A stretch of DNA of 64,000 nucleotides, taken from positions 7,735 through 71,734 of the forward strand of contig CAYJKF010000003.1 of assembly GCA_964370865.1 (NCBI GenBank), given 5' to 3'. Under the pieces are notes generated by a model. The model was not told where the DNA came from. It saw only the letters and a list, made by a program, of their open reading frames with translations, and ran no database searches. Below, piece by piece: positions 1 through 54,607 of the stretch. The position numbers and the translations under genes were made by a program. How positions within the stretch are numbered: position 1 is the first letter of the stretch; each line of letters opens with the position of its first letter. The stretch comes from an uncultured Candidatus Saccharibacteria bacterium (GTDB taxonomy: Bacteria; Patescibacteriota; WWE3; 2-01-FULL-39-13).

Positions 1-2
1 TT

Positions 3-1229
3 TTGGTTGATGTAGAAAGTGATGCACCTGAAGCTGAAAGTAACGTAGATGTTGATGAAAAAGTCGAAATTAAAGAGGTTGGCAGTGTTTTAGGAGCTTC
101 TACAATGCCAGCAACAGGTTCTAACTTTGGCTTCACACTATTTGGGGCAAGCTTAGTTCTACTTGGGCTTCTTGTAAGATTTAGAAGATTCTTTAAGAAA
201 CCTGTACAAATAGCTTTATTTACTCTAGCTTTATCAGTTTTCGCTGTTACTAAAGTAAACGCGTCAACATTAAATGCAAGGCTATACGAACCAAATGATA
301 ATGTTAATTCAACATTTAAATTAGATTTTGTAGTTCTATCTATGAATCAAAGTGATGGTGTTATAGTAGATTGTTATGTTAAAAGACCTGGTGAAGGTTC
401 TTTCTCAGTATTCCAAACGGTTAATTTAATAGCTGGTGGCACTTCATCTACATGTGATGTAAATAATTCTGTATTAACAACATCCAGTCTTACTCCATAT
501 GAATTCTACATAGAAGCTACTCAAGGTGTTAACAATGCCACTTCTGGAACTGTGGATACAAGATATGATTCTGCAGGACCAAATAAACCAGAAGATTTTG
601 ATGTCGATAGAGATAATGAGTGCGAATACGATATTGAATTCAAAACAGCTAACGACGGACAGACTGCAAAAGTTGAAGTTTACAGATCAACAAATGATGT
701 ATTTCCAGTAAATGACTCAACAAGGGTTAAAACAATAGTAATTGGTCCAAATACCGAACATAGTTTCACAGATACAGTAGCCGGTGTATTATGTGGAGAG
801 GTAAATTACTATGCTCTCAGAGCGTTTGACTCAGCAGGAAATGCCTCAGATGTAGCTAATCAAGATTATGATGAAACTTCAACCAAGACAGTTACCGTTT
901 CAACAACCTCCTCGGAGGGCAATGAAGGTGGTACCGCAGGTACAGGAGGAACAACTGGAGGCATTGGTGGAGCGATATTAATAGAAGAGGGTAGTGGCGC
1001 AGTAGCAACTCCAACCGACGAAGAAGGAGCCGTAGCTGGTACAACAGATGAAGAAGGTAATTCTATCGATGGATTGGAAATTATTGATACTGATGACTCA
1101 GAAGATGATGAATCAAATCCCTCAGTTCTTGGTGACACAGACAAACCATTTAACTGGTGGATTGTTTTAGGTATCCTTGGAGCAGGAATTGTTGGCTATG
1201 TCGGATACAAATACTTCGCAAGAAAATAA
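3..1229 (+). CDS. Cell-surface protein, 5'-partial (continues upstream of window). It has an N-x-S/T-rich ectodomain, a Gly/Thr- and Asp/Glu-rich stalk and a C-terminal hydrophobic anchor with basic tail. It also carries an internal LPXTG-like module (MPATG + hydrophobic stretch + RFRRFFKK) followed by a second signal-anchor-like helix.
   Basis: Uninterrupted ORF from the window edge. Hydrophobic/charged pattern read from the translation. Many N-x-S/T sequons. Its 3' end overlaps a sortase-like gene. Confidence 0.55.
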   Translation: MVDVESDAPEAESNVDVDEKVEIKEVGSVLGASTMPATGSNFGFTLFGASLVLLGLLVRFRRFFKKPVQIALFTLALSVFAVTKVNASTLNARLYEPNDNVNSTFKLDFVVLSMNQSDGVIVDCYVKRPGEGSFSVFQTVNLIAGGTSSTCDVNNSVLTTSSLTPYEFYIEATQGVNNATSGTVDTRYDSAGPNKPEDFDVDRDNECEYDIEFKTANDGQTAKVEVYRSTNDVFPVNDSTRVKTIVIGPNTEHSFTDTVAGVLCGEVNYYALRAFDSAGNASDVANQDYDETSTKTVTVSTTSSEGNEGGTAGTGGTTGGIGGAILIEEGSGAVATPTDEEGAVAGTTDEEGNSIDGLEIIDTDDSEDDESNPSVLGDTDKPFNWWIVLGILGAGIVGYVGYKYFARK

Positions 1230-1884
1230 AAAATACTTACAAGTCATAAGAAGGTCCATAAACGTTAACAGCGTTTCAAACCTTCTTATTTTGTTAGGAT
1301 TTGTAATTCTGTTTCTAACTTATTATAAAATTGCTTTTTATGAGTCACGTTACATCGTGTCCAAAGTCCTAACAGAAAATTCTGCTAATGATAGTAAAAC
1401 CACTTCCGCAAGTGACAACAATGCAAGTAAGGAAATTGACTTAACCGACGAGACTCGAATCATAATTCCAAAACTCCAAATAGATGCGCCCATTATTTTA
1501 GATATTGATCCATATAATGTGGCTGATTATCAAATAGCATTATCCAAAGGTGTCGCCCTATCAAAAACATCTGCAGACTTAGATGAGTTAGGTAGATCTT
1601 TCATCTTTGCACATTCCTCAGAGAACTTCTATGAAGCAAGCCGATATAATTCCATTTTTTATTTAGTAAATAAACTTGAAGCTGGTGACAAATTCTACAT
1701 AACGTACAAAAGTCAGCTTTATGAATACGAAGTAAAAGGCAGGGAATATGTTAAGCCTGATAGAGTTGATTTGATGTCAGCAAAAACTGATAACACAACT
1801 AAAGAGCTATATTTAATGACTTGTTGGCCACCAGGAACCACTTTCCAACGCTTAATAGTTAAGGCAGAATTAATTAACAAGTGA
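1177..1884 (+). CDS. Sortase-family transpeptidase, N-terminally membrane-anchored. The true start is probably an internal Met, e.g. MSDTNTSQ.
   Basis: N-terminal TM helix (LLILLGFVILFLTYY). Conserved His (FIFAHSS), catalytic TLxTC-like LYLMTCWPPG and downstream Arg (TTFQRLIV), in sortase order and spacing. Confidence 0.6.
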   Translation: MEQELLAMSDTNTSQENKKYLQVIRRSINVNSVSNLLILLGFVILFLTYYKIAFYESRYIVSKVLTENSANDSKTTSASDNNASKEIDLTDETRIIIPKLQIDAPIILDIDPYNVADYQIALSKGVALSKTSADLDELGRSFIFAHSSENFYEASRYNSIFYLVNKLEAGDKFYITYKSQLYEYEVKGREYVKPDRVDLMSAKTDNTTKELYLMTCWPPGTTFQRLIVKAELINK

Positions 1885-1896
1885 TAGACTATTTGT

Positions 1897-2247
1897 ATGC
1901 TTAAGCAAATTATAAAACTCTTTCTGGATGCATTAGCATTGATTTTAGTTTCTTATATTTTACCTTCACTCCAAATCTCCGATTATGTGACTGCACTTAT
2001 TGCCGTTTTAGTAATTGCTCTAGTTAATATGTTTATTAAGCCTATTGTTCATATACTTACATTGCCAATTAATATTGTTACGCTGGGATTATTTACATTA
2101 TTAATTAATGCGGCTATGTTCGCACTTGCTGCTTACTTTGTAGATGGATTTGAAATAGCCAATCTATTAACTGCAGTTCTTGGTTCGATACTATTTTCGA
2201 TTTTCTCTTTTGCCTTTGCCACTTTATTAAACGTTAATTCAGATTAA
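1897..2247 (+). CDS. YvlD/DUF360-family (phage-holin-4-like) small integral membrane protein
   Basis: Four predicted TM helices. Close resemblance to B. subtilis YvlD across ...ALIAVLVIALVNMFIKPIVHILTLPINIVTLGLFTLLINAAM... Confidence 0.65.
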   Translation: MLKQIIKLFLDALALILVSYILPSLQISDYVTALIAVLVIALVNMFIKPIVHILTLPINIVTLGLFTLLINAAMFALAAYFVDGFEIANLLTAVLGSILFSIFSFAFATLLNVNSD

Positions 2248-2259
2248 ATTTTTGGGAAA

Positions 2260-2829
2260 GTGAATAAAATTAAAACTCTGTCTCTTCTGACATTTTCAAT
2301 ATTACTTCTTGTTGTATTTTTATACTGGCAAGGACGACCGTTCATTTGTGAGTGTGGAACTATATCATTGTGGTCGGGAAACATATGGAGTTCAGAAAAC
2401 TCACAACAATTCTCTGATCCATATTCATTTACTCATTTACAACACGGTCTAGTATTCTTCATTTTAATTGCCATCCTTCTACCAAAGCTTAAAGCTAATA
2501 CAAAATTCTTAATAGCCATTTTTGTCGAGGTTCTTTGGGAAATTGTTGAGAACAGTACTTACGTTATTAATATCTATAGAACTAACACTGCATCACTTGG
2601 CTATACAGGTGATTCAATACTCAATTCTATCGGGGACATTCTGTTCTGTGTAATAGGTTATTTGATTGCCAAAAGGCTCGGTATTAAGAAGGCCATCATA
2701 CTATTCCTATTTATTGAAGTCACTATGGTTTACCTATTAAGAGATAGCCTAATTCTAAATATAATCACTATGATTCATCCATTTGAAAGTATCGTCAATT
2801 GGCAATTAGAAGCTGCCATAGCTATTTAA
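2260..2829 (+). CDS. Multi-pass membrane protein, UPF0314-like (ICxCG...LW.G...SSENSQ motif)
   Basis: Several hydrophobic helices. Motif FICECGTISLWSGNIWSSENSQ recalled from the UPF0314 family; the family assignment is from memory only. Confidence 0.4.
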   Translation: MNKIKTLSLLTFSILLLVVFLYWQGRPFICECGTISLWSGNIWSSENSQQFSDPYSFTHLQHGLVFFILIAILLPKLKANTKFLIAIFVEVLWEIVENSTYVINIYRTNTASLGYTGDSILNSIGDILFCVIGYLIAKRLGIKKAIILFLFIEVTMVYLLRDSLILNIITMIHPFESIVNWQLEAAIAI

Positions 2830-4207: not shown

Positions 4208-4227
4208 ATCCCCATAGGGGGGATATA
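4205..4227 (+). promoter_or_regulatory. CsoR-type operator: GC-core inverted repeat TATATCCCC-ATA-GGGGGGATATA overlapping the -10/TSS region and abutting the csoR start codon
   Basis: Near-perfect palindrome read in the sequence. It resembles the known B. subtilis/M. tuberculosis CsoR operator (ATACCC...GGGTAT type). It lies immediately upstream of a CsoR-family gene and a copper ATPase gene. Confidence 0.65.
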
Positions 4228-4496
4228 TGTCGTACACACCAAAAGACTCAAAAGAAAGAATTCTACATAGATTAAAAATAGCAAACGGTCACCTTAAAAA
4301 AGTGCAAGATATGATGCAAGACGATGCATATTGCATTGATATAATCCATCAATCGAAAGCCATTCAAAAAGCCTTAAAAGAGGTTGATAATTTAATACTT
4401 GAAAACCACCTTAATGGTTGTGTTGCTGATGCAATCAGCCAAGGCAACAAAGATGAAGCGATATCAGAGGTAATGAATATTTTTAAAAAATCCTAG
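4227..4496 (+). CDS. csoR: CsoR/RcnR-family metal-sensing transcriptional repressor (copper-sensitive operon repressor)
   Basis: 89 aa with the conserved Cys-His-Cys ligand pattern (...YCIDIIHQ...NGCV) typical of CsoR (DUF156). Directly precedes copA. Confidence 0.85.
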
Positions 4497-4497
4497 A

Positions 4498-6789
4498 ATG
4501 ATTAACAAAAAATTTGAAGTTAAAGGAATGCACTGTGCAAGTTGCAGCTCGATTATAAAAAAGAAAATATCTAAACTTCCTGGGGTCGAAGAATGCCATA
4601 TAAACTACGCAACAGAGAAAGCCAATATTTCATTTGATCCAAAAAATGTATCCGTTAATCAGATGAATAGTGAAATTAATAAACTTGGATATTCAATCAT
4701 TGACACCGAAAGTGATATTACCAGTTCCAGCAAAACAAATGAGCACATGGATCACACTCATCATACCGGAATTTCGATGACTAAGGAAGATAAATTAACT
4801 GAACTTAATAAGGCGAAAGTTAAGGTCAGTTTTGCTATGCCCATAACTTTACAAATTTTCACAATAATGATGTGGGATATTGCATCTAAAATATTCGAGT
4901 GGATTCCTATGATGCCTATAAATATGGAAATCCTAAATGCGATTTCTTTTGTACTTGCAACAATCTTTATATTTTGGATAGGACAATCATTTTTAGAAGG
5001 GGCAATACGTTTCTTTAGATATCGAGTTGCTAATATGGATACGCTTATTGGTATTGGGACGATTTCAGCTTTTATTTACAGCAGTGCAATATTTTTATTT
5101 CCGCAAATTATAGAACTATTAAATGCTCCTAATCATACCTATTTTGATGTAACTATCGTTGTTATTGGGTTTGTGACTTTTGGTAAGTATTTAGAAGCGA
5201 AATCTAAATTAAAAACAGGGGAGGCAATCGAGAAATTGCTTAAACTCCAAGCAAAAACAGCTACCGTTATTCGAGACGGCAAGGAAGAAGAGTTACCAAT
5301 TGAAAGTGTTGTCGTTGATGACATTATTATAGTAAAGCCTGGTGCAAAGATTCCTTTAGATGGAATTATTATTGAAGGTCAAACTTCAGTAGATGAATCA
5401 ATGATTACTGGCGAACCAATTCCTGAAGATAAAAAAGTAGGGGACATTGTAATCGGTGCCACTATAAATAAACAAGGTAATATAAGATATAAAGCCACAA
5501 AAGTCGGTTCAGATACAATGCTTTCACAAATCATTAAGTTGGTAGAAGACGCACAGGGCTCTCAAGCACAAATTCAAAACCTAGCAGATAAAATTTCTTC
5601 AATTTTCGTACCTATCGTTTTGGTTATATCTGTATGCGTTTTGGTTCTATGGCTAACTATAGGTAGCTATTTTATGGGATTTTCTAGTGGATTATCATAT
5701 GGAATATTATCTTTTGTAGGCATCCTGGTAATTGCATGTCCATGTGCACTTGGTTTAGCTACTCCAACAGCAATTATTGTTGGAGTTGGTAAAGGTGCAG
5801 AAAATGGAATCTTAATTAAAAATGCCGAAAGCCTAGAGAAACTTTATAAAGTAACAACTCTTGTATTTGATAAGACAGGAACAATTACAAAAGGTAAACC
5901 AACGGTTACGGATATTGTCTCATTTAATAATAACTTTACGCTTGAAGATTTACTTGGTAAGGCTTCAAGTTTAGAAAAGCTTTCAAGTCATCCACTGGCA
6001 ATGGCCGTAACTGAAAAAGCTTCTGAACTTAAATTGGAAAATTTAAAAGTCGAGAGTTTTAAAGAAACTGATGGGGTCGGAGTTGAAGGATTAATTCACA
6101 ACTTGAAAGTAATTGTGCGAAAACCAGTTAATTCAGAAAATCAAAATGAGACTATTCAACGTCTACAGAGCGAAGGAAAGACTGTTATTGTGGTCGAAGA
6201 AGAATCATATTTAATAGGCGCTATAGCAATTAGCGACACAATTAAAGAAACAGCTGTGGGGGCTATTAAGAAACTTCACTTACTTGGAATTAAAACTGTA
6301 ATGTTAACAGGGGATAACAGCAAAGCGGCTAATTTTATTGCTAAACAAGTTGGAATCGATATTGTGAAAGCTGAGGTTATGCCACAGGATAAATCAGCTG
6401 TAATAAAAGATCTTCAAAAAGATGGTGCAATCGTGGCAATGGCAGGGGATGGTATAAATGACGCTCCAGCCTTAACACAAGCCGACGTAGGCGTAGCTAT
6501 GGCTACTGGTACTGATATTGCAATTGAGTCTTCAGATATAATTCTATTACACGGCGATATATCTAAAATTCCACAAGCTTTTAAACTATCTCATTCAACC
6601 ATTCGAACGATAAAGCAAAATCTGTTTTGGGCATTCATTTACAATGTAGTAGGAATACCTCTTGCTGCAGGAGCTCTCTATCCTTTCTTTGGAATATTTT
6701 TAAACCCTGTATTTGCAGGGCTAGCTATGGCATTATCTTCTGTATCAGTTGTAAGTAATTCATTATTATTAAAGAGGTTAAAACTATGA
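4498..6789 (+). CDS. copA: Copper-translocating P1B-type ATPase
   Basis: N-terminal HMA domain GMHCASC, TM CPC motif (ACPCALG), DKTGTIT phosphorylation site, GDGINDAP hinge. Confidence 0.95.
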
Positions 6790-7814
6790 TAGATAATTTA
6801 TGGGTAGTGTTCATTACTGGATTAACGGTTGGTGGACTTACTTGTCTTGCAGTCCAAGGTGGACTTCTTGCCTCTGTATTGGCAAGTAAAGAAAATGAAA
6901 ATCCTAACAGCAAAGATATTCGTAAAAAAACTATTATTGCTACAGGTGCTTTTCTTATCTCTAAGCTTATTGCTTATGCATCTTTAGGGTTTGTACTTGG
7001 TGCATTTGGATCAGCATTAAGTATTAGTGATGATGTACAAGTTTTAATGCAACTCGCCGCAGGATTATATATGGTTGCGGTTGCTCTAAATTTGCTCGAG
7101 GTACATCCGATATTTAGGTATGTTATTTTTCAACCTCCTAAATTTTTAACTAAGTTAGTGAGAAATCAGACAAAATCAAAGGACTTATTTGCCCCAGCAC
7201 TACTAGGAGCTATGACAGTTTTTATTCCATGTGGAACTACGATAGCTATGGAAACGCTTGCAATAAGCTCTGCCAATCCAATATATGGGGCTGCAATTAT
7301 GGCTGCATTTACGCTTGGAACAATTCCTGCATTTCTTGGAATCGGAGTTCTTACTTCATTCTTAGGTGAAACTTTTAAATCAAAATTTTTAAAAGTTGCG
7401 GCTTTTGCCGTTCTATATTTAGGTGTTACATCTATCTGGGGATCGTTTACTGCACTCGGTTTCACATTTCAAGTCGGTGAAGGACCAAATCGTAATACTA
7501 AAGAGAATACAGCAATCCTTGGATCGCAAAGTGAAGAAAATCAACCAATAGATCAGGAAGTAGAAATTAATATTACCTCCTCAGGATACTCACCTGCATA
7601 CATTCAGGTTAAACAGGGATCAAGAGTTAGAGTTACATTGATTGGAAAAGGCGCATATTCATGTGCAGCTGCTTTTAGAATACCTTCTCTTGGAATATCT
7701 GAGAATCTATCTCCAAATGATAAAGTTCAATTTAGTTTTACACCTCAAAATAAAGGAAAAATACCATTTAATTGCTCAATGGGAATGTATACAGGAGTAA
7801 TAGAAGTATTATGA
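6786..7814 (+). CDS. Integral membrane protein (DsbD_2/CcdA-like TM domain with single Cys in two helices) fused to a C-terminal cupredoxin-like putative copper-binding domain
   Basis: About 6 TM helices (LTCLAVQGG..., VFIPCGTT...). C-terminal about 90 aa beta-rich domain with Cys/His/Met (SCAAAF...[11 protein letters not shown]). Start overlaps the copA stop, in the copper operon. Confidence 0.5.
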
Positions 7815-8044
7815 AAGTAATAACACTAAAAATACTTGGAATGCACTGTACAGCTTGTGCTATGAATATTGATTTTGATTTAGAAGACTTAGACGGAGTT
7901 AAAAATTCAACAACAAACTATGCCAAACAAACATGTGAAGTTGAATTTGATGAAAGTCTTATTACAGTTGATCAACTACAAGAACAGATCAAAAAAATAG
8001 GTTACGATTCAGAGGTTTTCTCCACCACTACTATTTCTTCTTAA
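7811..8044 (+). CDS. copZ: HMA-domain copper chaperone
   Basis: [20 protein letters not shown] (GMxCxxC). The ATG overlaps the upstream stop (ATGA). The ORF track gives a longer form from 7772. Confidence 0.85.
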   Translation: MKVITLKILGMHCTACAMNIDFDLEDLDGVKNSTTNYAKQTCEVEFDESLITVDQLQEQIKKIGYDSEVFSTTTISS

Positions 8045-9413
8045 TATTTATCTTTAAATCTCTTAGTTGAATTTCAGTAACTTCACTTGGAGCATTCATT
8101 ACTGAGGTCTGACCATTTCCTGTCATTGGAAATGCCTGAACTTCTCGTAAATATTTCTCACCTGTAAGATTCATAATGCAACGCTCTACTCCAATAGCTA
8201 TACCACCATGTGGAGGCGTTCCAAATTGAAAGGCTTCAATCATATGACCGACGCTTTCCATCATTTCATCTTTTGAGTAACCCATTATTTTGTAAGTGGC
8301 TTCTAATATTTCAGATTTGTGAGCTCTAATACTACCTCCACCTGATTCATATCCATTACAAACTAAGTCATATTGAGTTGTTAATATTTGATCGATATTC
8401 TCACCTTTCATATGCCAGTCTAAATGTTCTGGAATAGGCATCGAAAATGGATTATGACTGAATGTCCACTTTCCATCCGATGTCTTTTCGAAAAAAGGAA
8501 ATTCAATAACCCAAGCGTAGGAGAGTACTCCGTCTTCTTTTTCTTGCTCAGTTCTGAGGTCAAATTTATCTGCCCCATACTTATCCATAGCATCTTTATA
8601 TGTAATTCTTGGGAATGGTTTTTCTTTTAACTTAAATCCCATACTTTCAACAACGGTAATCATCATTTCCTCAACAGTATTCATTACATCATTCATATCG
8701 ACAAATGACATTTCTAAATCGATTTGAGTATGTTCAAATCCTCTATCTGCCCTTAAATCTTCATCTCTAAGAGCCCTAGCTATTTGAAAATACCTCTCAA
8801 AACCAGCAGTCATTAATAATTGTTTATATTGTTGCGGTGACTGGGGGAGTGCATAGAATTTTCCGGGTTGGAGTCTTGAAGGAACTATAAAATCTCGTGA
8901 ACCTTCTGGAGTTGATTTCGTTAATAATGGAGTTTCAATTTCAACAAAATCCTTAGAAAATAAAGCTTCACGTGCCTTTTGAACAAAGTCACTTCTAAGT
9001 CTTATATTTTTTTGTAATCTCTGGGTTCTAAGATCTAAGTATCTATATTTTAAACGTGTGTTCTCCTCAATATTTGCAGTATCTTTACTAATTTCAAATG
9101 GGGGAGTTTTTGATTCGTTTAATATGGTTAATTGAGTGGCTTCTAACTCAACGGTCCCAGTTTCAATTTCTGTATTTATCATTGACTGAGGTCTTGCCTT
9201 AACAAGTCCTTCTATTTCAATAACGAATTCATCTCTAAGGGCTTTAGCTTGTTCAACGATTTCGCCTGCAAATACTACTTGAAGAAGTCCACTTCTGTCT
9301 TTAAGGTCCAAAAAAATAATTTTTCCATGTCCTCTTACAGAATTAACCCATCCTTTAACGAGTACGGTTTCTCCTACTTTTGACATGGTTTCTTTTATAA
9401 TAGTGCGGTTCAT
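8031..9413 (-). CDS. aspS: Aspartyl-tRNA synthetase, short form (460 aa, no GAD insertion domain)
   Basis: N-terminal OB fold. Class II motif 2 signature FYALPQSPQQYKQLLM...FERYFQIARALRDEDLRADRGFEHTQIDLEMSF matches AspRS. Motif 3 is GGIAIGVER. Confidence 0.9.
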   Translation of the reverse strand: MNRTIIKETMSKVGETVLVKGWVNSVRGHGKIIFLDLKDRSGLLQVVFAGEIVEQAKALRDEFVIEIEGLVKARPQSMINTEIETGTVELEATQLTILNESKTPPFEISKDTANIEENTRLKYRYLDLRTQRLQKNIRLRSDFVQKAREALFSKDFVEIETPLLTKSTPEGSRDFIVPSRLQPGKFYALPQSPQQYKQLLMTAGFERYFQIARALRDEDLRADRGFEHTQIDLEMSFVDMNDVMNTVEEMMITVVESMGFKLKEKPFPRITYKDAMDKYGADKFDLRTEQEKEDGVLSYAWVIEFPFFEKTSDGKWTFSHNPFSMPIPEHLDWHMKGENIDQILTTQYDLVCNGYESGGGSIRAHKSEILEATYKIMGYSKDEMMESVGHMIEAFQFGTPPHGGIAIGVERCIMNLTGEKYLREVQAFPMTGNGQTSVMNAPSEVTEIQLRDLKINIKKK

Positions 9414-36756: not shown

Positions 36757-37332
36757 CTATATCACCTCCTTATTATTATAATTAATCAACTTTAATATTT
36801 TAGCTTTAACCAGTATTCTAAATTCGTCATTTGGTCCATCACACGTAAAAAGGCTTAAGTGAGTATCCCCAATAGATGATATTTTGTCAATTTCGTCAGG
36901 CAATACAACCTCTTTCGATACAATCTCATAAGTCACAACTCCAGATGGAGTATAAATCTTTATAGTTTCTCCTTTGTTTAACTGATTCATATTCCCAAGT
37001 AATTCAGGAATGGCATGACCATAAACAATTAAATTTCCACCGTTTTCAAATTCCAACTCACTATTCTCAACATAAGCTAGAAAATGCCTATAAACCTTCC
37101 AAGATTCGTTTACTTCTTCACTTTTTTGTAAGCCTACTTTTATCCCAATACTTGGAATTGAAATCGCAACCGGTTTATCAAAACCCTTATAAGGACTGAA
37201 TTCTGATGGAGAATTCGAAATATAAAAGTCTGACTTCGAGTGGACTATCGTGGGATTTGCAATTTGATAAATCGAGAATAATAGTACTGAAAAATTTAAG
37301 CTAGCAAACAGCAAAATATATTTATAAAACAT
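36757..37332 (-). CDS. Sortase-like transpeptidase (second copy), N-terminally anchored
   Basis: His in LIVYGHAIPE, TLxTC-like HLSLFTCDG, then Arg (EFRILV) 8 residues on. N-terminal TM. Less certain than the first sortase. Confidence 0.4.
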   Translation of the reverse strand: MFYKYILLFASLNFSVLLFSIYQIANPTIVHSKSDFYISNSPSEFSPYKGFDKPVAISIPSIGIKVGLQKSEEVNESWKVYRHFLAYVENSELEFENGGNLIVYGHAIPELLGNMNQLNKGETIKIYTPSGVVTYEIVSKEVVLPDEIDKISSIGDTHLSLFTCDGPNDEFRILVKAKILKLINYNNKEVI

Positions 37333-53938: not shown

Positions 53939-54015
53939 TGGTCGGGGAGACAGGACTCGAACCTGTGACCTCTTCGTCCCAAACGAAGCGCGCTAGCCAA
54001 CTGCGCTACACCCCG
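53939..54015 (-). tRNA. tRNA-Pro (UGG); U6:U67 mismatch in the acceptor stem
   Basis: Hand-folded cloverleaf: D-stem GCGC/GCGC, anticodon loop UUUGGGA, T-loop TTCGAGT, CCA encoded. Confidence 0.75.
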
Positions 54016-54339
54016 AAAATCTTGTATCTACTTAATTGGCAATCCTATAGTTTTACCGACGTTCTTTAGTACGCCAACCACAATTGACAGGACGAGTTTA
54101 CAAAAATAGAAAAAAACCTTTAGAATTCGAGACAGAACAAATGCTGCATACTGTTCAGCCTGGTTTTTCTTAACATCCATATCATACTGGTTTTGTACGA
54201 AGTTGTCTTGCATTATGAAATTATACGTTAAATGTAGATTTTAAGCATCATATACGTTTATAATATATATGCGTTACAATAACAAAAACGGTCAGTTTGT
54301 ATGTTGTGTCTAGAAATACCCACAACTGGTGCCTTTTAT

Positions 54340-54425
54340 GCCGCGGTGGCGGAATGGTAGACGCGCTGGACTTAAAATCCAGTTCCTTCACCGGAGTGAG
54401 AGTTCGAGTCTCTCCCGCGGCACCA
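54340..54425 (+). tRNA. tRNA-Leu (UAA), long variable arm
   Basis: Acceptor GCCGCGG/CCGCGGC, anticodon loop CUUAAAA, T-loop TTCGAGT, CCA encoded. Confidence 0.85.
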
Positions 54426-54437
54426 AGGCATGGATTT

Positions 54438-54514
54438 GCCTCTGTAGCTCAATTGGATAGAGCGTCGGTCTTCGGAACCGCAGGTTGGGGGTTCAAATCC
54501 TCTCGGAGGCACCA
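54438..54514 (+). tRNA. tRNA-Arg (UCG)
   Basis: Acceptor GCCTCTG/CGGAGGC (one G-U), anticodon loop CUUCGGA, T-loop TTCAAAT, CCA encoded. Confidence 0.75.
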
Positions 54515-54531
54515 TAATATACATACCATCC

Positions 54532-54607
54532 GGGTGCATAGCTCAATTGGCAGAGCAACTGGCTCTTAACTAGTAGGTTGCAGGTTCAAGCCCTGCTGCA
54601 CCCACCA
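54532..54607 (+). tRNA. tRNA-Lys (CUU)
   Basis: Acceptor GGGTGCA/TGCACCC, anticodon loop CUCUUAA, T-loop TTCAAGC, CCA encoded. Confidence 0.85.

Follow-up and report, generated by a model that had tools for sequence, protein, structure and literature searches.

How can a sortase sorting signal function in the interior of a protein? The question is raised by the first 1,884 nucleotides of a 64,000-nucleotide stretch of DNA, hereafter the window, which comes from an uncultured Candidatus Saccharibacteria bacterium assigned by GTDB to the WWE3 lineage of Patescibacteriota (GenBank assembly GCA_964370865.1, contig CAYJKF010000003.1, forward-strand positions 7,735 to 71,734). Here, an open reading frame (ORF) for a surface protein contains an LPXTG-type pentapeptide, MPATG, and continues without a stop codon through a second signal-peptide-like segment and a further ectodomain, until its 3' end overlaps a sortase gene. 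The original prediction, made from the sequence alone, offered two explanations, namely a polyprotein processed internally by a sortase, or an assembly frameshift that had fused two sortase substrates. The comparative analysis presented in this study favours, with a probability that we put at about 0.6, a natural two-in-one precursor, in which a giant LPxTG protein and a small membrane protein with paired FN3-like domains (FN3-FN3) would be processed via a membrane hairpin, through one cut by sortase and one by signal peptidase. Judged from sequence and gene order, the giant LPxTG protein, the small FN3-FN3 membrane protein and the sortase form a three-part cassette that is conserved in the Candidate Phyla Radiation (CPR).

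The internal sorting signal

Frame 3 of the forward strand is open from nucleotide 3 to a TAA codon at 1227-1229, and this stretch (3..1229) represents the last 408 codons, plus the stop, of a longer gene; the ORF is 5'-partial because the window begins inside that gene. The upstream extension proposed along with the original prediction was obtained by exact-sequence look-up of the sortase, which located the same locus on 23 contigs and yielded the complete gene (L001:4063-10032), encoding a protein of 1,989 residues with an N-terminal signal peptide. The ectodomain of about 1,600 residues gave weak, below-threshold matches to SpaA_4, SdrD_B and choice-of-anchor C. Every element named in the original prediction, i.e., MPATG, its hydrophobic helix, RFRRFFKK, the second hydrophobic segment, the downstream ectodomain with its transmembrane (TM) segment and KYFARK tail, and the sortase, was present in its place.

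The MPATG motif (105-119; residues 1616-1620 of 1,989, with the predicted cut between T and G) is immediately preceded by a VLGAST motif (87-104), itself preceded by EVGS, and is followed by 19 hydrophobic residues (SNFGFTLFGASLVLLGLLV, 120-176), which represent the membrane span of the sorting signal and are predicted to act as a stop-transfer helix oriented N-out/C-in, and then by the basic cluster RFRRFFKK. The latter belongs to a loop, RFRRFFKKPVQ (177-209), that contains five K/R and no D/E and is predicted to be cytoplasmic. The NCBIfam model LPXTG_anchor (TIGR01167) matches residues 1617-1643 of the protein (P0006) with 17.2 bits against a cut-off of 15.9. The C-terminal position required of LPXTG anchors is lacking, since 369 residues follow MPATG, and the signal is likewise internal in the 96 fused relatives described below. 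By its sequence, the MPATG signal thus qualifies as an LPXTG anchor in every respect but the position at the C-terminus that defines such anchors.

Fused and split forms of the same genes

A word-based homology search with the 408 residues encoded in the window identified five stand-alone proteins of 316-340 residues (P0001-P0005), each with its own initiator methionine and signal peptide, followed by the same ectodomain, linker, TM segment and basic tail as the C-terminal part of the window protein, hereafter the module. At the split loci, the first gene encodes a giant protein that ends in VLGAST-LP[AS]TG, a TM segment and a basic tail, the second the small protein and the third the sortase. 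The ATG of the small gene lies within an 8-nucleotide ATGnnTAA overlap with the stop codon of the giant gene at 15 of the 22 split loci, or 16 if the second methionine of L008 is counted; L015, L017, L019, L026, L038, L039, L042, L043, L052 and L053 are among them, with junctions near locus position ~6990. The AGGAGG Shine-Dalgarno sequence of the split module gene coincides with the Arg-Arg codons in the charged tail of the sorting signal, so that charged tail, ribosome-binding site, start and stop are all specified by a single stretch of DNA. On sequence grounds, this arrangement appears typical of translational coupling. As the orthologues exist as two adjacent genes, the window ORF would be an evolutionary fusion, or else the split forms would be fissions.

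The family alignment, used to scan a single genome of each GTDB species, returned 48 loci, all in metagenome-assembled genomes (MAGs) of Patescibacteria, including WWE3, Gottesman-, Levy-, Roizman-, Collier- and Pacebacteria, in agreement with the CPR affiliation guessed in the original prediction. Twenty-four of these species loci carry the fused form as a single ORF, 21 are split and three are too fragmentary to call, so that the search of other CPR genomes which had been suggested did reveal the fused architecture with an adjacent sortase as a recurrent one; the best module match in the GTDB representative genomes was 41% identical. A profile search of 1.84 billion cluster representatives gave 1,173 hits at E ≤ 0.001, 494 of them at E ≤ 1e-30, and the best 150 of the 1,173 were inspected. 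The resulting set of 154 sequences, in which cluster representatives stand for independent 50%-identity clusters, comprised 96 fused proteins with an internal [LMF]PxTG motif, one fused protein without it and 57 stand-alone proteins, the module always lying at the extreme C-terminus of the fused ones. Together with the match to TIGR01167 above its cut-off, this recurrence of sorting signal and second signal peptide in 96 independent clusters marks the pattern as more than a chance one. Many of the cassette-bearing MAGs (L010, L021, L026, L030, L034 and others) are titled 'uncultured Gammaproteobacteria' or 'Pseudomonadales' in public records, labels that look wrong or like placeholders, and some are titled 'Saccharibacteria'.

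On a neighbour-joining tree of the module, the fused and split states were clustered, with at least 18 changes of state against a mean of 46 and a minimum of 34 after shuffling, which indicates that both states are viable and heritable. The window protein forms a long branch, at most ~37% identical to any other, and its neighbours are mostly fused.

The junction itself could be suspected of being an artefact or a product of decay, either an assembly frameshift or a recent inactivating deletion of one nucleotide in an ATGnnTAA overlap. In favour of this, the window reads aga ttc ttt aag aaa where the split locus L009 reads aga tATG TTT AAa aaa, being one base shorter and having neither the ATG, nor an in-frame stop, nor an AGGAGG-like Shine-Dalgarno sequence. 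Against it, the junction is 100% identical in five contigs assembled separately from different samples, which differ by at most one nucleotide over the 6.6-kb stretch that spans the giant gene, the module and the sortase. Moreover, most of the branches that lie closest on the tree share the fused state, no residue invariant in a 57-sequence alignment of the family has been lost, and the signal peptidase site V-N-A is intact. Since fusion also recurs in MAGs of unrelated studies, the assembly frameshift considered in the original prediction was rejected, and artefact or decay as a whole seems hardly credible; the accompanying idea of two genes holds insofar as the orthologues are adjacent genes, and fails insofar as their fusion here was not made by assembly.

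Conserved features of the junction

Among the fused relatives, the pentapeptide is most often LPATG (48), followed by LPSTG (21), LPGTG (13), LPKTG (4), MPATG (2) and MPSTG (2). A [VIL]LG tripeptide lies within 14 residues before LPxTG in 92 of the 96, most commonly at a spacing of four residues. A motif of the [VIL]LG(A/E/D)(S/T) type also occurs in the C-terminal juxtamembrane linker of the module ([VIL]LG in 136/154 sequences), although the module has no LPxTG; in the window, it appears next to the membrane as SVLGDT, with VLGDT at 1125-1139. From its distribution, the VLG-type motif could be an extended recognition element, or a relic of a former sorting signal in the module. The sole case without LPxTG among the 97 fused sequences is P0144, a cluster representative of 760 residues in which the pentapeptide is gone (..KEVLGAATGTNTTWLIL..), and the hairpin and second signal peptide are kept.

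The geometry that follows the pentapeptide is shared across the family. In the fused forms, LPxTG is separated from the first basic residue by a median of 24 residues (range 19-29), the basic loop measures eight residues and carries four K/R in the median, with nine acidic residues in total over 96 loops, and a second hydrophobic stretch comes next. This geometry fits a membrane hairpin that obeys the positive-inside rule.

In the window, the second segment (177-263) shows the pattern of a Sec signal peptide, with a basic n-region, a 13-residue h-region (IALFTLALSVFAV, 210-248) and a c-region, TKVNA (249-263), after whose VNA signal peptidase I is predicted to cut (263/264). RFRRFFKK does double duty, closing the sorting signal with a charged tail and supplying the n-region of this second signal peptide; where it reads F-K-K, the alignment places M-F-K-K in the stand-alone orthologues, whose signal peptides match the window sequence FKKPVQIALFTLALSVFAVTKVNA column for column, with an invariant Ala at position -1. 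The alignment identifies the second segment as a homologue of genuine, Met-initiated N-terminal signal peptides. Cleavage is predicted to leave a module that begins at S88 (STLNAR; STLNARLYEPND), and the N-terminal peptide predicted from this cut is STLNARLYEPNDNVNSTFK.

Whether such a segment would still be cleaved deserves separate consideration, as a signal peptide placed internally, behind a TM segment, frequently persists as an uncleaved signal anchor. The precursor might then be cut at MPAT/G with its second segment left uncut, the module remaining as a protein with three TM segments; in a weaker version, no cleavage would occur and the product would be one polytopic protein with two ectodomains. 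This general behaviour of internal signal peptides, together with a hairpin geometry compatible with stable insertion of two helices, speaks for hairpin retention. The conservation of the cleavage site speaks against it: of 95 fused sequences, 88 have [VAT]-x-A in the 15 residues ahead of the conserved start of the mature module (LSVRxEQPKSPT), compared with 15/95 at the first TM segment, 16/95 at the C-terminal TM segment and ~29 expected from shuffling the region, and keeping it would be needless if the site were never cut. The h-region, at 13 residues, also has the short length typical of a signal peptide that is cleaved, not of a TM anchor, and the version without any cleavage has to contend with an internal LPxTG kept in 96 of 97 fused forms. 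An Ala occupies the chosen -1 position in 94/96 fused and 49/51 split sequences, figures that come from an optimising picker and are biased, equally for both sets. The retention of [VAT]-x-A indicates that the second segment has not lost, in its internal position, the features that make a signal peptide cleavable, and a retained hairpin is accordingly regarded as an unlikely outcome.

From MPATG to the start of the mature module, the window ORF has no in-frame ATG, GTG or TTG. Separate translation of the module from a canonical start was rejected for this genome, the only candidate being an ATA at codon 70 with no Shine-Dalgarno sequence. With no internal start, and with all four columns that are invariant in the 57-sequence family alignment preserved in the window module, the module would be made only through the fusion.

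The FN3-FN3 module

In an AlphaFold2 model built on the 57-sequence alignment (mean predicted local distance difference test score 79.5), the helix of the signal peptide is followed by two beta-sandwich domains predicted with confidence, a linker of low confidence and a C-terminal TM helix. The ectodomain (264..872) comprises the two FN3-like beta-sandwich domains at ~270-560 and 591-827, and it is joined by a probably disordered Gly/Thr/acidic linker (873..1154), without LPxTG, to the TM segment WWIVLGILGAGIVGYVGY (1155-1208), which anchors the module in the membrane without being a canonical sorting signal, and to the basic tail KYFARK (1209-1226). Foldseek comparison with the PDB retrieved generic tandem FN3 pairs only, and no significant family match for the module was found in Pfam and NCBIfam; public records name its members 'hypothetical' or 'uncharacterized'. 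The ectodomain holds a RAFDSAGN motif and four Cys, two of which fall in columns invariant across the 57 aligned family members. The 'glycoprotein-like' label given to it in the original prediction found no support, the domain being a tandem FN3-like pair. Similarly, the downstream part does not appear to be a second sortase substrate, a candidate that was rejected because an LPxTG-like motif occurs in the C-terminal 60 residues of only 1 of the 154 relatives.

The sortase and its possible roles

The search with the Pfam sortase hidden Markov model (HMM) that had been proposed as a check identified the downstream gene as a sortase (PF04203, E = 2.2e-19, 69.9 bits against a cut-off of 26.6), and TIGR01076 also matched (42.8 bits against 39.35). 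Its start is likely the ATG at 1198, giving a protein of 228 residues (1198..1884, forward strand) and an overlap of 32 nucleotides with the upstream ORF; the overlap noted in the original prediction therefore stands, and the TTG at 1177 proposed there as the start is the less likely one. The enzyme carries an N-terminal TM segment (VSNLLILLGFVILFLTYY, 1273-1326). Its LMTCW (Cys codon 1822-1824) and QRLIV (Arg codon 1849-1851) align with the LVTC and KRIIVK of solved class A SrtA chains, and the candidate catalytic His, assigned by position only, lies in FAHSS (1612-1614). From these residues, the sortase looks active. None of the class A-F models (NCBIfam NF0337xx) reaches its cut-off, leaving the sortase unclassified; the best of them, class C, scores 59.9 bits against a cut-off of 160, and classes D, E and F score lower.

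A sortase gene lies directly downstream of the module at 51 of 52 loci, the sole exception ending at a contig edge; two of these loci, L006 and L021, are the same contig. In some relatives, a further sortase is encoded 4-7 kb upstream of the cassette (L006:2085-3339, L048:2566-3180), which in L006 is preceded by a 241-residue ORF and followed by a gene for a cellulose-synthase-like glycosyltransferase. The window, too, contains a second sortase gene (36757..37332, reverse strand; 191 residues, PF04203 E = 3e-13), whose product is 34% identical to the cassette sortase over 70 residues. The gene follows hrcA-grpE-dnaK-dnaJ and a PolX/PHP gene, has no neighbouring gene for an LPxTG substrate, and may encode the housekeeping enzyme.

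Gram-positive pilus systems divide the work between dedicated and housekeeping sortases, and the constant proximity of sortase and module brings to mind a reaction other than wall attachment. The cassette sortase might join the LPxT carboxyl group of the giant ectodomain to the FN3-FN3 module, through its new N-terminus or a side-chain amine, and so tether the giant protein covalently to a membrane-anchored stalk; in the fused form, the hairpin would be excised and the two ectodomains religated. Such ligation would agree with the linkage of giant substrate, module and sortase at 51/52 loci, with the 1:1 stoichiometry that coupled or fused genes ensure, with the nature of the module as a non-enzymatic tandem FN3 stalk bearing its own TM anchor, with the second, unlinked sortase as a possible housekeeping enzyme, and with class C being the nearest class by HMM score. 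Other observations speak against it. The module has no invariant Lys, the most conserved one (91%) and that of PKSPT being replaced in the window protein by Val and Asn, respectively, so that a fixed Lys acceptor was rejected; nor was a conserved +1 residue found that could act as N-terminal nucleophile, the predicted +1 residue being variable (A in 37%, then G, S, V, Q, L and E). The giant protein has no YPKN pilin motif, and the class C score remains far from its cut-off. Ligation to the module is in our opinion rather improbable.

For the fused form, the same chemistry would amount to a 'membrane-hairpin splicing', in which the segment from MPAT/G to VNA/S is excised and the LPxT carboxyl group is ligated to the module, at its new N-terminus or another amine, to give a continuous membrane-anchored giant adhesin. 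This is a speculative proposal, and we hold it to be improbable indeed. If true, split lineages would join two separately exported proteins by the same ligation, and the near-ubiquitous sortase of Microgenomates would be primarily a protein-protein ligase for the cassette.

Proposed processing of the precursor

The two-in-one precursor remains the preferred reading, and its processing can be outlined as follows. The N-terminal signal peptide would begin Sec export of the ~1600-residue ectodomain, until the helix of the sorting signal halts transfer and the RFRRFFKK loop is left in the cytoplasm. The next hydrophobic segment, formerly the signal peptide of a downstream gene, would re-insert in the N-in/C-out orientation and restart export with the FN3-FN3 domains, and the last TM segment with its KYFARK tail would hold the module in the membrane, so that the two exported parts of the chain would be linked by a short hairpin in the membrane. 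Cleavage of MPAT/G would then fall to a sortase, most probably the one encoded alongside, which would transfer the giant ectodomain to an acceptor, by default the cell wall, while signal peptidase I would cut after VNA and free the module as a type I membrane protein; the hairpin of ~50 residues would be discarded. The two cuts would give the same products as two coupled genes, which would explain both the frequent interconversion of fused and split forms and the retention of both processing sites.

The sortase-processed polyprotein of the original prediction is thus borne out in its architecture, by an internal LPxTG that is conserved, a sortase that is linked, a second segment homologous to signal peptides and a peptidase site that is retained, while the case for cleavage itself comes from comparison. 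Several considerations weigh against the proposed processing. We infer the topology, both cleavages and the acceptor from sequence, and the boundaries of the segments were set by simple hydropathy and regular-expression rules. Met at the first motif position is rare in the family (4/96), and acceptance of MPATG by the sortase is assumed; with two sortases encoded in the window, either is a candidate enzyme for this motif. A Met occurs near the start of the second signal peptide in 45 of the 96 fused relatives, some of which could also make the module from an internal start. Finally, the family counts reflect the inspection of the best 150 hits, and the history of the two states was read from a rough neighbour-joining tree based on ~235 residues of the module.

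Neighbouring genes

A further giant ORF (L001:1-2028; 1,916 residues called), on the far side of tsaD/tsaE and just outside the upstream edge of the window, runs off the locus and ends without an LPxTG sorting signal. Giant surface-type genes are thus clustered at the locus, and a single one of them encodes a sortase substrate. Directly after the sortase, positions 1897..2829 encode a 116-residue protein with four TM segments (PF04020, 'phage holin 4_2' family, E = 1e-29) and a DUF2585 membrane protein (E = 1e-58), a pair that is not conserved beside the cassette in the relatives inspected. A copper-handling cluster at 4227..8050 comprises a CsoR-type repressor, a P-type ATPase with an HMA domain, a DsbD_2/cupredoxin protein and a small HMA protein. 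Four clustered tRNA genes (Pro, Leu, Arg and Lys) are found at 53939..54607, and the whole window contains eight tRNAs and no rRNA.

Relation to known surface proteins

With canonical Gram-positive LPXTG proteins, the window protein shares the pentapeptide, the ~20 hydrophobic residues and the basic cluster, and the cassette sortase shares with canonical sortases the membrane anchor and the His, Cys and Arg residues; the anchor and sortase HMMs each score above their cut-offs. The window system differs in that its signal is internal, Met occupies the first motif position and the sortase stays below the class A-F cut-offs. Sortase-assembled pili offer a further comparison, being similar in the dedicated sortase beside its substrate, the second, unlinked sortase elsewhere and the weak SpaA-like and SdrD-B-like matches. 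They differ from the cassette, which has one LPxTG gene, a partner without LPxTG and a sortase far below the class C cut-off; the pilin motif [YFVI]PK[NDGST] was not found in P0006. These differences leave a pilus system without support.

In viral envelope polyproteins, such as those of flaviviruses, a TM segment ends one protein, the next signal sequence restarts translocation and host signal peptidase separates the two. The logic of a TM segment followed by a signal sequence is the same here, but the viral case is eukaryotic, takes place at the endoplasmic reticulum and involves no sortase, so that the resemblance is one of analogy only.

The closest parallel comes from the streptococcal Zmp/IgA1 proteases, and Bender and Weiser (2006) is reportedly the source for their atypical LPXTG domain. 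According to PMC3518915, these proteases (IgA1 protease/ZmpA, ZmpB, ZmpC and ZmpD) have a signal peptide, a non-C-terminal LPXTG, two hydrophobic segments after it and a proposed second signal peptidase site. Compared with that description, the window protein displays the same pattern of LPXTG, two hydrophobic segments and second signal peptidase site. The LPXTG of Zmp lies near the N-terminus, so that the upstream piece is small, whereas ~1600 residues precede the motif here; the downstream part of Zmp is a zinc protease (HEXXH), whereas here it consists of paired FN3 domains with a TM anchor of their own. The CPR cassette also has an adjacent sortase gene, and its host is a CPR bacterium. 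The two systems show no sequence homology, and their relation is one of analogy, not membership. A further difference is that the CPR halves also exist as coupled separate genes in about half of the lineages, a split-gene counterpart not being described for Zmp in the text consulted; homology to the split CPR counterparts shows the second segment to be a signal peptide.

Implications for CPR surface biology

Sortase sorting signals are defined as C-terminal, and the sole described exception found in the literature consulted was that of the Zmp/IgA1 proteases, for which the processing model is only proposed. Literature searches on internal LPXTG motifs, sortase polyproteins and CPR sortase substrates turned up no account of the cassette architecture. 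The occurrence of the same two proteins either as coupled genes or as one chain represents a natural control experiment, carried out many times over, and it lends strong comparative support to the view that an internal sorting signal combined with a re-initiating signal peptide is a workable, selectable design. What would be new here is a widespread family and a context for a rare, still unproven processing design.

More broadly, the analysis defines a very widespread, unannotated three-part surface cassette in CPR bacteria, a group for which little is understood of cell-surface biology or attachment to hosts. The cassette may explain why a sortase is found almost throughout the Microgenomates (PMC6744442). 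It also provides a compact natural system for studying dual processing by sortase and signal peptidase.

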